The notes under the pieces are model-generated. The model was not told where the DNA came from and did not search any database. It worked only from the letters and a program-made list of their open reading frames with translations. Below are positions 16,397-18,571 of a DNA stretch of 64,000 bases, in pieces. The position numbers and the translations under genes are program-made. The stretch is from Elusimicrobiota bacterium (GTDB taxonomy: Bacteria > Elusimicrobiota > Elusimicrobia > 2-02-FULL-39-32): contig JAKFYJ010000011.1 of NCBI GenBank assembly GCA_021730935.1, positions 3,401 through 67,400 of the forward strand, read 5' to 3'. Position 1 is the stretch's first letter. Each line of letters starts with the position of its first letter.

Positions 16397-17229
16397 GGCT
16401 GGCATTTTGGACAGAACACAACACCTCTTCCTGTGATGACGGCCCGCCTGAAAATCGTCCCGCATTTCGGGCAGGGCAACCCTTCTTTTCCATAAGCGCG
16501 GCTGAACATCTGGCTTCGTCCTTTCTTTCCCATGGCGTCCACATAAGTATTCATCGAATAGCCCCGATGTTCAATAGACTTTTTTATGATCTTGTTTATG
16601 GAGGCCGCGAGCGTCTCCAGTTTTTGCGCCGGAATTTTCCCCGCGTGTTTCAGGGGCCTGATCCCTGAATCATACAAAGCTTCCGTGACATAAATATTCC
16701 CAAGGCCGCTCACGAGACTCTGGTTCAGAAGCGCCGAATGAACCGGCGTTTTACGCCCGTCAAAAACTTTTTTAAGATATTCCCCCGTGAGATTTTTTTC
16801 CGTCGGTTCCACGCCCAAAGCCCGGATGGCGGAATCTTCCCTCCATCGCTCCACATAAACCGCTTCGCCGAAGCGTCTGCGATCAGAAAAATAAAGTTTA
16901 TGCCCGTCAGTGAAATTGAACATGATTCTTTCTTTATAGGCGGGAGGGTTGAGCAAAAGCTGGCCCGTCATGCGCAGATGAAAAATGATTGCCGTGCCGT
17001 CCCCAAACTCCATCACGAGATATTTTCCCCGCCGGTCGAACCGCGAAATGATTTTATTGCTCACCTGGTTCGCGAACAGGAGAGGCGTGACGTTTCGCCG
17101 AGGTTTTCCTGCGGGCCCGATGCCCGTGAGAGCGGAGGGATCTTTCACGAAAACAGATTCTATGGTTTTTTTGAGGAGCGCCGCTTCCAGGTCGCGCCGG
17201 ATCGTCTCAACTTCAGGCAGTTCGGGCAT
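16393..17229 (-). CDS. mutM: Formamidopyrimidine-DNA glycosylase (Fpg/MutM)
   Basis: The N-terminus is MPELPEVETIRR, with the catalytic Pro2 and Glu3. A C-terminal zinc finger CPKCG...CPKCQ is present. 278 aa. Confidence 0.9.
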   Translation of the reverse strand: MPELPEVETIRRDLEAALLKKTIESVFVKDPSALTGIGPAGKPRRNVTPLLFANQVSNKIISRFDRRGKYLVMEFGDGTAIIFHLRMTGQLLLNPPAYKERIMFNFTDGHKLYFSDRRRFGEAVYVERWREDSAIRALGVEPTEKNLTGEYLKKVFDGRKTPVHSALLNQSLVSGLGNIYVTEALYDSGIRPLKHAGKIPAQKLETLAASINKIIKKSIEHRGYSMNTYVDAMGKKGRSQMFSRAYGKEGLPCPKCGTIFRRAVITGRGVVFCPKCQP

Positions 17230-17237
17230 GATGGCTT
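17199..17237. repeat. 39-bp perfect direct repeat, copy 1 (covers the mutM ATG plus the first 10 codons and 8 upstream nt)
   Basis: ggatcgtctcaacttcaggcagttcgggcatgatggctt occurs identically at 17199..17237 and 17650..17688. Confidence 0.8.
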
Positions 17238-17286
17238 TTTAATGGAGTTCCGCTGAGAGCAAAAAGGCAACGGCCATGGAAAGAGT

Positions 17287-17613
17287 TTAGTGGTAAAGGC
17301 TCTGGAGCTCGGCGACTTCGGCGGAGCCGAGGGAAACCCTGTGCTTCATGACATCGTCGCTGAACATTTTGAAGGATTTGAGAAATGCCGCGCCGCGTTT
17401 TCCAAGGCTATATTCCACCATGATCCGGCCTCGTTCAGTGGGCGCCGTGCGAGGGACAATCCAAAGCCCTTTGCGCAGGAACCTGAGCGCCCGGTCCACC
17501 TGGACGGGGTTCAGATTCAAAGCCCTTTGAATCTGGCTGAAATACATGGGCTTCCTGTAAAGGGTCGCTAGCACGCGGATATAGTCTTTATGTCCAAGCA
17601 GGTCAATAATCAT
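17287..17613 (-). CDS. Small winged-helix DNA-binding protein (HxlR/PadR-like regulator), 108 aa
   Basis: MIIDLLGHKDYIRVLATLYRKPMYFSQIQRALNLNPVQVDRALRFLRKGLWIV... has an HTH-plus-wing pattern. It is preceded by a consensus promoter with no SD, suggesting a leaderless transcript. Confidence 0.5.
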   Translation of the reverse strand: MIIDLLGHKDYIRVLATLYRKPMYFSQIQRALNLNPVQVDRALRFLRKGLWIVPRTAPTERGRIMVEYSLGKRGAAFLKSFKMFSDDVMKHRVSLGSAEVAELQSLYH

Positions 17614-17648
17614 AATGTTAGTATACTATCAATTTGTAAGTATGTCAA
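17614..17648 (-). promoter_or_regulatory. Consensus sigma70 promoter: TTGACA, 17-nt spacer, TATACT, then 6 nt, then ATG (predicted leaderless transcript of the wHTH gene)
   Basis: Minus-strand reading: TTGACA (17648..17643), a 17-nt spacer, TATACT (17625..17620), AACATT, then ATG (17613..17611). Confidence 0.55.
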
Positions 17649-17649
17649 G

Positions 17650-17688
17650 GGATCGTCTCAACTTCAGGCAGTTCGGGCATGATGGCTT
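17650..17688. repeat. 39-bp perfect direct repeat, copy 2 (a duplicated mutM 5' end; encodes MPELPEVETI then diverges)
   Basis: Identical to 17199..17237. It lies immediately upstream of the -35 of the wHTH promoter. Confidence 0.8.
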
Positions 17689-17749
17689 ATTGAAATTCAA
17701 GCTTTCTCATTCCGTGAAAAACTGATAAAACTTCTATAAAATATGAAAA

Positions 17750-18571
17750 CTAAGGCAATGTCCCAGTTACAACCATATAGTCTACTCCGCTACCCTCAAA
17801 TATTCGGTTCTCCATTGCTAAAAACACAGCAACGACATCGTGGTACACATAGATATCCTTAATTGCATACTGATATACTTCTCCTCGAGATTTCGGCAAT
17901 TTTTTGTCATCTTGCAAAATTTTCACTTTTCCTGTTGCAAGGTTGGTGATGGAAAGCTTGAAAGCTGCGAGTTCGACATTTTCACCATGTCCAATAGTAA
18001 ATGTCGATAGGAGAACTTCAAAAGACCGAGTAGAGAATGCTGATGATTTCTCATTGTAACGGAAATAGTATGGCGGGGCGATTCCATATCCGGATTGATC
18101 CCCGGAATAGCCTCCATCGACAAAAACTGCACGAAATGGATTAGGCGCGATTTCAGCGGCTCTGCGCGCCACAACATGATCACCAATATTTCCGTCTAAA
18201 ATTCCAAAATTATTTAGTTTATACTTAATCAATTTAAGCGTATCTGTTGAAATTACATGCTCTTCATCACCCATGCGAAGAGGAGAAACTGTCCACTGAT
18301 TAGAACTTACATTAATAATATACGTTGTTACCATTGTTGATGATCCTTCTAGGCCGTCATATACGGAAAAAGCAAGGTTTTTACCATTTGCATCAAAGCC
18401 ATGGAAGCGCAGTTCACAGAAAAAAGCAGCAAAAGTATACGAAACAACTAACAATAAAACCGCTAAACAAATAAAATGGAATTTAATAATTTTATTAATC
18501 ATTTTTAATTCCCTTATGATCTTCTTTCCGACTGTTTCGACTATATTTGAAAATGAGAGTATTAGAAGCAA
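17750..18571 (-). CDS. Hypothetical membrane-anchored/secreted protein in an AT-rich segment; the likely real start is the internal ATG near 18500 (MINKIIKFHF...)
   Basis: The track ORF starts at a TTG. The internal Met is followed by a TM/signal segment FICLAVLLLVVSYTFAAFF. The local GC (about 35-40%) is well below the flanking genes. No recognisable family. Confidence 0.45.
   Translation of the reverse strand: MLLILSFSNIVETVGKKIIRELKMINKIIKFHFICLAVLLLVVSYTFAAFFCELRFHGFDANGKNLAFSVYDGLEGSSTMVTTYIINVSSNQWTVSPLRMGDEEHVISTDTLKLIKYKLNNFGILDGNIGDHVVARRAAEIAPNPFRAVFVDGGYSGDQSGYGIAPPYYFRYNEKSSAFSTRSFEVLLSTFTIGHGENVELAAFKLSITNLATGKVKILQDDKKLPKSRGEVYQYAIKDIYVYHDVVAVFLAMENRIFEGSGVDYMVVTGTLP

Follow-up and report, generated by a model that had tools for sequence, protein, structure and literature searches.

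A probable two-gene cassette insertion at the start of mutM, with later decay of the partner gene, in an Elusimicrobiota bacterium

The window analysed here is a 64,000-nt (64-kb) stretch of contig JAKFYJ010000011.1 from an Elusimicrobiota bacterium. The locus under study lies on the minus strand of the window and comprises an intact mutM gene, a pair of long direct repeats enclosing a small winged-helix (wHTH) gene with its own promoter, and two further genes upstream. Its features are as follows.

16393..17229, minus strand: mutM (Fpg), intact, 278 aa, with the domains Fapy_DNA_glyco, H2TH and zf-FPG_IleRS
17199..17237, minus strand: direct repeat copy 1, the functional mutM 5' end (ATG at 17229-17227, with 8 nt of the repeat before it and 28 nt after it)
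17238..17649, minus strand: inserted segment of 412 bp, read as a cassette minus its deleted partner body
17239..17277, minus strand: partner-gene remnant of 12 codons, MAVAFLL joined to SAELH and a stop codon, the stop lying 1 nt from repeat copy 1
17287..17613, minus strand: wHTH gene, 108 aa, intact, encoding a winged-helix protein, the presumed autorepressor of the cassette promoter
17620..17648, minus strand: cassette promoter, with -35 TTGACA at 17648-17643, a 17-nt spacer and -10 TATACT at 17625-17620
17625..17641, minus strand: predicted dyad operator in the promoter spacer, ACTTACA-AAT-TGATAGT
17650..17688, minus strand: direct repeat copy 2, a decoy mutM start
17750..18502, minus strand: low-GC DUF2259 gene, outside the repeats
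18674..19465, minus strand: rhomboid-family gene, the ancestral direct upstream neighbour of mutM

All three Fpg Pfam domains were found in the mutM product, and the stop codon of mutM overlaps the start of coaE. The first-pass annotation had pointed to exact 39-bp direct repeats at the mutM start, and both copies were recovered: the perfect 39-mer GGATCGTCTCAACTTCAGGCAGTTCGGGCATGATGGCTT occurs in the 64-kb window only at 17199-17237 and 17650-17688, no further copy was found there at up to three mismatches, and the number of 39-mer matches expected in shuffled sequence is 0. When one mismatch is allowed, the repeat grows to 42 nt (41/42 identical, with the 39/39 core). The length of 451 bp, previously given for the segment, holds as the repeat period, but the sequence between the two copies measures 412 bp. 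Read on the minus strand, the repeat consists of 8 nt of upstream sequence, the mutM ATG, 9 further codons and 1 nt; that is, it contains 10 codons counting the ATG, and not the ATG plus 10 codons as first described. As had been noted, mutM reads on from the 17199-17237 copy only. The upstream copy translates as MPELPEVETIP followed by a stop codon, which overlaps the -35 box of the cassette.

The 412-bp insert contains the promoter, the wHTH gene and the 12-codon remnant, and no mobility gene. Both of its ends lie 1 nt from a repeat, and the promoter abuts repeat copy 2 (GATCC-C-TTGACA). The 108-aa winged-helix ORF reported between the repeats was confirmed by the fold of its AF2 model (pLDDT 87), which matches the structures of PadR, YodB, SmtB and MarR, while its Pfam scores are sub-threshold for both HTH_5 (16.6, threshold 22) and HxlR (15.3, threshold 20.8). 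No second copy of the wHTH gene was found in the 64-kb window. Every element of the promoter described at first pass was also observed, namely the perfect TTGACA, the 17-bp spacing, the TATACT, the wHTH ATG 6 nt after the -10 and the absence of an SD; the promoter matches 11 of the 12 consensus positions. The wHTH mRNA is predicted to be leaderless, and the dyad in the spacer is consistent with the presumed role of the wHTH protein as an autorepressor of the cassette promoter.

The wHTH protein has 81 homologues with identities ranging from 53 to 100%; the comparison with the closest homologue gave a dN of 0.13 and a saturated dS. The cassette family to which it belongs comprises about 100 loci (32 genome loci and 70 metagenome loci), with hosts in Elusimicrobia, Acidobacteriota, Myxococcales, Planctomycetota and others. 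In the cassette, a leaderless-type promoter containing a dyad operator is followed by the wHTH gene and then by a partner gene of about 164 aa, which lies directly downstream of the wHTH gene in most loci; in relatives the two genes are co-directional, with about 10 nt from the wHTH stop to the partner start. The pattern of -35, 17-nt spacer and -10, with a start codon 5-7 nt past the -10, is present in 51 of 85 family loci. The family operator consensus is ACTTACA-N3-TGTAAGT, to which the right half-site in the window has 2 mismatches, and the half-sites co-vary from locus to locus. In the wHTH family, a more distant branch pairs with a DUF6036-like nucleotidyltransferase. We concluded that the cassette family is widespread, conserved and previously undescribed, and that it defines two uncharacterised protein families, of at least 81 wHTH proteins and at least 185 partners. 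A phage or plasmid origin was considered and rejected, as no relatives of the wHTH protein were found among IMG/VR viral contigs and the PLSDB plasmids gave no match for the wHTH protein, the partner or the DUF2259 protein.

All of the 185 members of the partner family are annotated as 'hypothetical', and searches of Pfam, NCBIfam, PHROGs and PADLOC with the partner gave zero matches. The best structural matches of the partner model (pLDDT 86) are flavodoxin-like, TIR and NDT domains, suggesting a flavodoxin/TIR/NDT-like fold at TM scores of only about 0.5. Residues E87 and H110 of the partner are invariant. The homology of the window with the family loci L001, L003 and L005 begins at CC(C)TTGACA and extends 7 codons into the partner. 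The remnant joins the first 7 and the last 5 codons of the partner of about 164 aa, its final codons (SAELH and stop) matching the partner C-terminus (LLSAEL and stop), and apart from this remnant no partner was found in the 64-kb window. Judged from this alignment, the window copy is a complete cassette from whose partner about 150 internal codons were deleted in frame. The insert is more than the "small regulatory module" suggested at first pass: it is a complete two-gene cassette minus its second gene. Independent partner remnants beside an intact wHTH gene are found in L029, L044, L046, L053, L069 and L073. About 30 of the 69 loci with an intact wHTH gene have a disrupted partner or none at all, an approximate count because the crude ORF caller limits start-codon positions and some of the 'broken' partners are probably intact. 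Two genes of 74 aa and 85 aa in L003 were considered as new genes and rejected, since together they are one split partner gene.

Comparison with related genomes uncovered the uninterrupted arrangement. In the relatives L039 and L040, one mutM start comes straight after the rhomboid gene, and the spacing between the two genes is 2 and 6 nt, respectively. Since rhomboid and mutM are 2-6 nt apart in these relatives, we considered the cassette at mutM as an insertion; the relatives are distant, with MutM proteins just 58-64% identical. No MutM with more than 66% identity to that of the window was found in the collections searched, and the pre-insertion state is deduced from distant relatives because the nearest MutM is only 66% identical. 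The direct rhomboid-mutM junction agrees with the first-pass readings that the mutM 5' end received an insertion with a long duplication and that mutM was stripped of its native upstream sequence, and the wHTH gene does not belong to a conserved mutM operon. The comparison supports the interpretation that the cassette was inserted at the mutM 5' end with an unusually long target duplication, and that the native upstream context lost by mutM was translational coupling to the rhomboid gene. At the same junction L038 carries a different insert, a toxin-antitoxin (TA) pair made up of an RHH_3 gene and a PIN_3 gene with their own promoter, around which no flanking repeats were found. In the window, the stop of the partner remnant is 11 nt from the mutM start, and terminator prediction gave nothing from the wHTH gene to mutM; therefore, transcripts from the cassette promoter most likely include mutM, alongside any upstream read-through.

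The source is evidently a metagenome-assembled contig, and identical proteins are recorded from one NCBI contig only, which speaks for the first-pass caution that the repeats might be an assembly artefact, that is, a chimeric metagenome join through a shared 39-mer. We give this explanation hardly any credence, given that the same repeat-cassette-repeat layout recurs in assemblies made independently, from other samples and with other assemblers, and that the junctions are biologically sensible. Moreover, the final k-mers of common assemblers exceed 39 bp, an error would be needed simultaneously at both junctions, and the insert is a coherent cassette bounded by the conserved promoter and the partner stop.

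Flanking duplications were found at 11 of 51 real cassettes versus 9 of 200 control positions of the same size and are thus enriched, with detectable repeats in only about 20-25% of the cassettes. The repeat of L001 (42 bp) is the 5' half of a tRNA-Lys, and the perfect 39-bp repeat of L003 is the 5' part of a tRNA-Leu, ending just past the anticodon loop, with the intact tRNA-Leu on the integrase side. The repeats of L050 (41 bp) and L072 (75 bp) are each a host-gene 3' end with its stop codon; others measure 63 bp (L034), 83 bp (L054), 89 bp (L078), 113 bp (L010), 277-366 bp (L087/L092) and 384+54 bp (L015). Because long duplications recur across the family, the window case is not a one-off. 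Cassettes that are 92-98% identical occupy unrelated flanks, and their homology breaks off 3-41 nt upstream of the -35 and 5-55 nt downstream of the partner stop.

A tyrosine integrase lies directly after the partner in L003/L004 and in L008, and site-specific integration is used at least sometimes, since a minority of loci show an integrase or tRNA-half repeats. The 39-mers at mutM might then be the attL and attR of a tyrosine-integrase element that targets gene 5' ends and brings a substitute 5' end with it. Its integrase would have worked in trans on a mini-element, or would have disappeared from a larger element of which decay has left the wHTH gene; the 39 bp in the window fall in the range of the tRNA-Leu and tRNA-Lys repeats. 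For the window we consider this unlikely. The insert comes within 1 nt of both repeats, which leaves no room for integrase remnants, and a tblastn search for the family integrase gave no match in the 64-kb window. Neither an att core nor a shared target type is conserved across family members, and the cassette boundaries differ by tens of nucleotides among loci. The repeats are mutually unrelated in sequence, range from 29 to about 580 bp and comprise tRNA halves, gene 5' and 3' ends and internal gene segments, which argues that they are not the product of one site-specific enzyme. A transposon or IS was also rejected, as there is no transposase, no terminal inverted repeats were found in 17100-18800, and the boundaries and duplication lengths are variable.

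It may also be asked whether the duplication came before the cassette. Indels are present inside one repeat copy in L015 and L078, showing that duplicated copies do rearrange, and duplication-insertion-duplication structures in rRNA operons have been explained in this way (PMC3457768). At mutM, a local tandem duplication of the 5' region would have arisen first, and the cassette would have been placed later at the duplication junction, for instance by template switching, break-induced repair or homologous replacement from another strain. Such an order of events is highly unlikely, because it requires two rare events at identical nucleotide positions in many independent loci, and it leaves unexplained that the cassette and repeat ends coincide within 1-20 nt in several loci.

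As a whole, the locus is probably best explained by the insertion of a two-gene cassette at the mutM start followed by decay of the partner. The ancestral operon would have been polA-rhomboid-mutM-coaE, with the rhomboid stop a few bases from the mutM start. A two-gene cassette of about 870 bp without a recombinase gene would have entered at the first codons of mutM, and the 39 bp over the mutM start would have ended up flanking it, with a downstream copy that preserves mutM and an upstream copy that is a dead 11-codon stub. Later, the partner would have been lost by a clean deletion that kept the reading frame and ran from one TTGCTC (Leu-Leu) site to another, leaving the 12-codon remnant and the intact wHTH gene.

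The closest precedent is insertion with long target duplication, as described for restriction-modification (RM) gene complexes (Nobusato et al. 2000, Gene 259:99; Furuta, Abe & Kobayashi 2010, PMC2853133), with target duplications of 45-47 bp and about 400 bp and no mobility gene (PMC2853133, PMC3874152). The cassette resembles these insertions in being a small selfish gene pair without transposase or integrase, located at or in gene ends and flanked by variable long target repeats of high but not always perfect identity. In the window, the repeats are longer than 30 bp (39/39) and the insert carries no mobility gene. The cargo differs, consisting of a wHTH regulator and a flavodoxin/TIR/NDT-like protein, the second gene having been lost in the window. 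Because no RM domains were found in the cargo, the cassette only works like the RM insertion class and is not an RM member.

Tentatively, the route of entry could be a recombinase-independent 'insertion with long target duplication' combined with loop-out and Campbell re-entry. The founding events would be illegitimate joins near the functional ends of the cassette. Homologous recombination would then release the repeat-flanked unit as a circle of the cassette plus one repeat copy, and the circle would re-enter a naive homologous site via a single Campbell-type crossover, regenerating the flanking duplication. It counts against this mechanism that a repeat of 39 bp comes close to the minimum length for RecA-type recombination. 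That the cassette is a new autonomous mobile element, whose own products drive excision as well as insertion with target duplications of long and variable length and with no canonical recombinase, seems to us quite unlikely; the candidate agents would be the flavodoxin/TIR/NDT-like partner and the wHTH protein, bound at the promoter-proximal end, and the window copy would be a non-autonomous relic. In a weaker version, the partner may be a new effector that targets NAD or nucleotides in a defence or addiction system not yet described.

AbiEi/AbiEii is a type II/IV TA module in which the first gene encodes a wHTH protein. Like TA modules, the cassette is a two-gene operon with a small DNA-binding predicted autoregulator first and an operator in its own promoter; like TA modules and orphan antitoxins, it is patchy across phyla and often loses the second gene while the first is kept. 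It also has insertion hot spots in common with RHH-PIN pairs (L038, L087). On account of this patchiness, the common hot spots and the repeated partner loss, the cassette appears from the comparative data to behave like an addiction, TA-like or defence-like pair. Unlike in TA modules, neither cassette gene passes any TA or defence family threshold, and the fold modelled for the partner differs from those of the known TA toxin families.

Integrative elements such as tRNA-targeting islands and phage 21/e14 at icd, which restore the end of their target gene, encode or depend on a site-specific integrase and are known to duplicate 3' parts of genes. The cassette is similar to them in having direct repeats of a gene end and in keeping the target intact via an identical element-side end, and L087 has arrays of displaced gene-end copies. 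It differs from them in that the 5' part is duplicated in the window, in the tRNA-Lys of L001 and in the tRNA-Leu of L003, and in that the window insert is without an integrase. The wHTH protein itself is comparable with PadR, HxlR (YodB) and ArsR-SmtB repressors in its wHTH with C-terminal helices (TM 0.6-0.72), its size of about 100-110 aa and a dyad operator overlapping its own promoter, but its sequence scores below the Pfam threshold of every one of these families, and its putative role is cassette autoregulation and not a stress regulon.

The movement of recombinase-less TA, RM and defence gene pairs is a long-standing question, for which the family provides many natural examples. These are independently assembled and run from a recognisable conserved promoter-operator to a stop codon; their boundaries are sharp yet non-identical, and long duplications of gene ends flank them. 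The window locus is a clear example of the entry and decay of such recombinase-less "selfish" gene pairs. Within 1.4 kb it would record one full life history, from entry at a translationally coupled junction, with the target gene saved by duplication of its start, to the loss of a presumably costly partner, and the DNA-repair gene mutM appears to have been rewired behind a foreign, presumably autoregulated promoter.

The AT-rich gene upstream of the cassette, for which a GC content of 35-40% had been stated, measures 38% GC versus 52% for the window. It had been regarded as of unknown family, but its product matches Pfam DUF2259 'predicted secreted protein' (E 6.7e-12; 46.2 bits versus a threshold of 25), with the alignment covering the C-terminal part only (residues 194-270). 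This gene entered between rhomboid and mutM in an insertion of its own. Its assignment to the cassette was rejected, because it lies outside the repeats, differs in GC content and has no similarity to the 280-aa gene of L001 that sits upstream of the wHTH gene there. No flanking repeats were found around the DUF2259 segment, and an Rfam search of 15500-19600 gave chance sub-threshold matches only. The gene does lie in the span first given, 17750-18571, but its start is more likely the ATG at 18502 than the TTG at 18571, to which the ORF could extend.

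All genes of the region around mutM are carried on the minus strand of the window, in the following order:

19465-22212, minus strand, polA
18674-19465, minus strand, rhomboid-family gene
17750-18502/18571, minus strand, low-GC DUF2259 gene (Pfam match)
17287-17613, minus strand, winged-helix (wHTH) gene
16393-17229, minus strand, mutM (three Pfam domains)
after mutM, minus strand, coaE

The 39-mer at the mutM start, which on the coding strand reads AAGCCATC-ATG-CCC-GAA-CTG-CCT-GAA-GTT-GAG-ACG-ATC-C, was found at exactly the two positions reported in the first-pass annotation, 17199-17237 and 17650-17688, and the repeat can be extended to 42 nt with one mismatch; shuffled sequence gave zero matches. 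At 17199-17237 the repeat forms the true start of an Fpg/MutM gene that is intact (278 aa) and retains its three Pfam domains. The copy at 17650-17688 is translated as MPELPEVETIP*, its TGA overlapping the -35 hexamer of the wHTH promoter, and only the first copy runs on into mutM, as had been stated.

In the collections searched, the nearest MutM besides the window's own is 66% identical, and the three nearest loci from other genomes or metagenome contigs (L038, L039 and L040) were compared at the rhomboid-mutM junction. In L039, which has the order polA-rhomboid-mutM-coaE, 2 nt separate the rhomboid stop from the start of mutM, and in L040 the gap between the two genes is 6 nt. L038, whose MutM is 64% identical to that of the window, harbours a 1.1-kb insert at the same junction (4869-6000), comprising a low-GC membrane-like ORF, a TTGACA-17-TACAAT promoter, an RHH_3 antitoxin and a PIN_3 toxin, the toxin stop lying 1 nt ahead of the mutM ATG; flanking repeats were not found for this insert. 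Since rhomboid and mutM are nearly adjacent in L039 and L040, and L038 has another insert there, the 1,444 bp between the two genes in the window are most probably inserted DNA, and the junction appears to attract small autonomous modules. The earlier reading of an insertion into the mutM 5' end with an unusually long target duplication is supported. The wHTH gene does not belong to a conserved mutM operon.

In the window, the stop of mutM and the likely start of coaE overlap (16391-16395; ATGA overlap at MKKQSIV...) and the rhomboid ORF begins where polA ends (19465), so the inserted junction appears to be the one place in the operon that lacks translational coupling; mutM would formerly have been coupled to rhomboid. 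In L040, an NTase_sub_bind + NTP_transf_2 pair (408-873), which looks like an MNT/HEPN-type TA pair, is located directly upstream of rhomboid, in the position occupied by polA in the window and L039.

The wHTH promoter, TTGACA-17-TATACT, matches 11 of the 12 consensus positions, and the ATG starts 6 nt past the -10 with no SD, in agreement with the first-pass annotation. The best matches of the AF2 model (pLDDT 87) were PadR, HxlR/YodB (TM 0.72), ArsR/SmtB and MarR, and no Pfam family threshold was reached; the winged-helix assignment, predicted from this model, holds at the fold level. The protein has 81 homologues with 53-100% identity (mean column identity 70%), nearly all of 106-110 aa; scanning species-representative genomes gave 32 loci, and scanning metagenome contigs gave 70. 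According to their labels, the genome records come from Elusimicrobia, Acidobacteriota, Myxococcales, Planctomycetota and Brocadiia, and Thermoanaerobaculia, with one further Patescibacteria bin and one Thermoplasmata bin; relatives were absent from the IMG/VR viral contigs and PLSDB plasmids searched. The gene is conserved (dN 0.13 against the L001 copy, dS saturated) and the promoter is conserved together with it: 51 of the 85 loci having upstream sequence show TTGAC(A/T/G)-17-(T/C)A(T/C)A(C/A)T, and in these the start codon lies 5-7 nt past the -10, the distance being exactly 6 nt in 43. The spacer contains a dyad, ACTTACA-N3-TGTAAGT, the halves of which co-vary among loci (GTAACAA/TTGTTAC, AGTTACA/TGTAACT, ACTCACA/TGTGAGT), a putative signature of a dimeric repressor's operator. 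The right half-site in the window, TGATAGT, has two mismatches.

About 10 nt after the wHTH gene, most loci have a 162-167-aa partner gene; promoter, wHTH gene and partner are referred to here as the cassette. The partner family contains 185 members (58-76% identity), all annotated as hypothetical, and no match was found in Pfam, NCBIfam, PHROGs or PADLOC. The partner model (pLDDT 86, pTM 0.85) has a three-layer alpha/beta/alpha fold, and its best PDB matches, flavodoxin-like domains, SPARTA TIR domains and nucleoside 2'-deoxyribosyltransferase (TM ~0.5), would indicate fold class, not function. In a more distant wHTH branch (42-55% identity), a DUF6036-like nucleotidyltransferase is the paired gene, and a membrane protein replaces the partner in a few loci. 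A third partner type, a protein of ~215-220 aa that begins MGKFFAA.. and whose N-terminus is hydrophobic (weak LEA_2 match), follows the wHTH gene in L011 (10356-11021), L025 and L032, which suggests that the promoter-wHTH unit recombined with different downstream genes. In L014 (10335-10826), the partner aligns full length by tblastn, yet there is no open ORF of at least 45 aa; it may hold in-frame stops, as a pseudogene or through an alternative genetic code in that bin.

DNA homology of the window to L001, L003 and L005 starts at CC(C)TTGACA, 1 nt past the repeat copy at 17650-17688 (junction ..GATCC/C/TTGACA), and spans the wHTH stop and 7 partner codons, ATGGCCGTTGCCTTTTTGCTC (MAVAFLL). 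The following five codons and stop, TCAGCGGAACTCCATTAA (SAELH*), match the partner C-terminus, which is ...QLLSTELN* in L001 and ...LLSAEL* in L048 and L023. Because MAVAFLL matches the partner start and SAELH* its C-terminus, the 12-codon ORF at 17277-17239, judging from these alignments, joins the first 7 partner codons in frame to the last 5, and a deletion between two TTGCTC Leu-Leu sites would have removed ~150 codons. Since the stop of this remnant lies 1 nt from the repeat copy at 17199-17237, the original insert, which reached from the promoter to the stop of the partner, was probably ~870 bp long and lay 1 nt from a duplication copy at either end. The insert is more than the captured small regulatory module suggested earlier: it is a complete cassette minus its partner. 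Independent partner decay was seen in L053, which kept N- and C-terminal stubs; L044 kept only the last 7 codons, and L029, L046, L069 and L073 only N-terminal stubs. Among 77 full-length wHTH genes counted after de-duplication, with approximate counts, the partner was intact in 38, disrupted in roughly 12-17 and absent in 14; a costly or toxic partner might account for its repeated loss. We concluded that the segment is an insertion that was once a complete cassette, that the target start was duplicated and the partner later deleted, and that the pattern recurs in the family.

The adjoining AT-rich gene has a low GC content, as noted previously (38% versus 52% for the window), but is not of unknown family, as it matches DUF2259 'predicted secreted protein' (Pfam, E 6.7e-12). 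Its segment lies outside the 39-bp repeats and differs in composition, and flanking repeats of its own were looked for and not found. It is treated as an insertion separate from the cassette, which it may predate or follow.

Direct repeats next to cassettes were sought by flank-against-flank comparison and were found to hug the cassette in many independent loci, with 83% to 100% identity.

Direct repeats flanking cassettes (locus; length; duplicated sequence)
L001; 42 bp; 5' half of tRNA-Lys, intact tRNA at downstream copy
L003; 39 bp; tRNA-Leu, to just past anticodon loop
L050; 41 bp; host gene's last 13 codons and stop
L072; 75 bp; host gene 3' end and stop (probably thymidine kinase)
L067; 29 bp; host sequence
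L034; 63 bp; host sequence, left copy ending 4 nt before -35
L054; 83 bp; host sequence
L078; 89 + 49 bp; 5' region of host gene
L010; 113 bp; 3' end of host ORF
L087/L092; 277-366 bp; host gene 3' part (probably capD-like polysaccharide biosynthesis)
L015; 384 + 54 bp; helicase-like host gene 3' end (probably SNF2 family) and downstream gene start (probably SWIM-type)

A repeat of at least 25 bp and at least 80% identity, within 600 bp upstream and 1000 bp downstream, was present in 11 of 51 real cassettes versus 9 of 200 pseudo-cassettes of equal size at other positions in these loci. The duplication kept the neighbouring gene or tRNA intact in every interpretable case; one repeat copy of L015 has a 151-bp deletion. 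L087 (285-5724) contains three copies of the host-gene 3' segment (probably capD-like), and the inserts between them differ: one is a 446-aa unknown gene, one is the wHTH cassette, and one combines a PIN_3 + RHH_1 pair with a further small RHH-like ORF. This looks like serial insertion at one hot spot. The same architecture in independent assemblies, the shortness of the repeat and the biological coherence of both junctions make an assembly artefact highly improbable, and we think it improbable that tandem duplication came first and insertion second.

L003/L004 and L008 have a tyrosine integrase after the partner, and L081-L084 have truncated integrase-like fragments, so some copies ride on integrative elements. 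These integrases in L003 and L008, and the tRNA targets, would fit repeats that are integrase att sites; we consider this unlikely, as the insert lies within 1 nt of both repeats, the repeats are diverse among loci and no integrase is detectable in the 64-kb window. In L003 (3270-7831) and L001 (3092-6625) the repeats are tRNA 5' parts with the intact tRNA downstream of the element, and the L003 integrase reads towards the tRNA; tRNA-targeting islands usually duplicate the tRNA 3' part. A third, diverged copy of the tRNA-Lys 5' half (76%) in L001 (6417-6458), 126 bp upstream of the intact tRNA and inside the repeat-bounded segment, may be what an earlier insertion left behind as a scar. The 3.5-kb L001 segment also has 186-aa and 280-aa genes without Pfam matches.

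Cassettes 92-98% identical in DNA were found in unrelated flanks, and their boundaries are sharp, near the functional ends and tens of nt different between pairs.

Homology boundaries (start relative to -35; end after partner stop)
L063/L067; -3; +5
L010/L015; -24; +25
L020/L074; -37; +41
L023/L024; -41; +55
window insert; -1; +1

Terminal inverted repeats were not found in the window at 17100-18800. This, and the sharp, variable boundaries, argue against a transposase or a single site-specific recombinase, and the boundaries favour illegitimate joins filtered by function, followed by spread via homologous flanks. The insertion may have followed the recombinase-independent 'insertion with long target duplication' known for RM systems, where target duplications range from 45-47 bp up to ~400 bp, no mobility gene is involved and the mechanism is unexplained (PMC2853133, PMC3874152, PMC3457768). 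In the concrete version that we prefer, with slightly less than even confidence, the repeats would allow excision as a circle of cassette plus one repeat, the circle would re-enter a homologous naive site by single crossover, and this crossover would recreate the duplication. Circle re-entry would explain the variable lengths, imperfect identities and arrays.

The wHTH protein may repress its own leaderless promoter through the dyad, and the degenerate half-site in the window might weaken repression. As mutM lies 11 nt past the remnant's stop with no terminator predicted between them, the cassette promoter probably contributes to its transcription in addition to read-through from upstream.

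The window insert falls in the already known class of selfish two-gene modules inserted with long target duplication. Three points are new: the insert is recognised as a decayed copy of an undescribed cassette that is widespread and has a conserved leaderless promoter-operator, this cassette is shown to have been complete on arrival, and long gene-end duplications are a recurrent property of the family. The importance rises if the partner is a new effector, or if the family reveals how recombinase-less cassettes move.

Elsewhere in the window, at 5556-11557 and 12557-14158, an apparent very large minus-strand gene with several diverged internal direct-repeat families is adjoined by a 533-aa ORF with a signal-peptide-like start; the two look like a candidate two-partner-secretion pair of repetitive exoprotein and transporter. 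At 22803-25026, two adjacent segments ~1.3 kb apart match each other at 71-77% identity over 190-300 nt (repeat families D1 and D2) and probably represent tandem paralogous genes.
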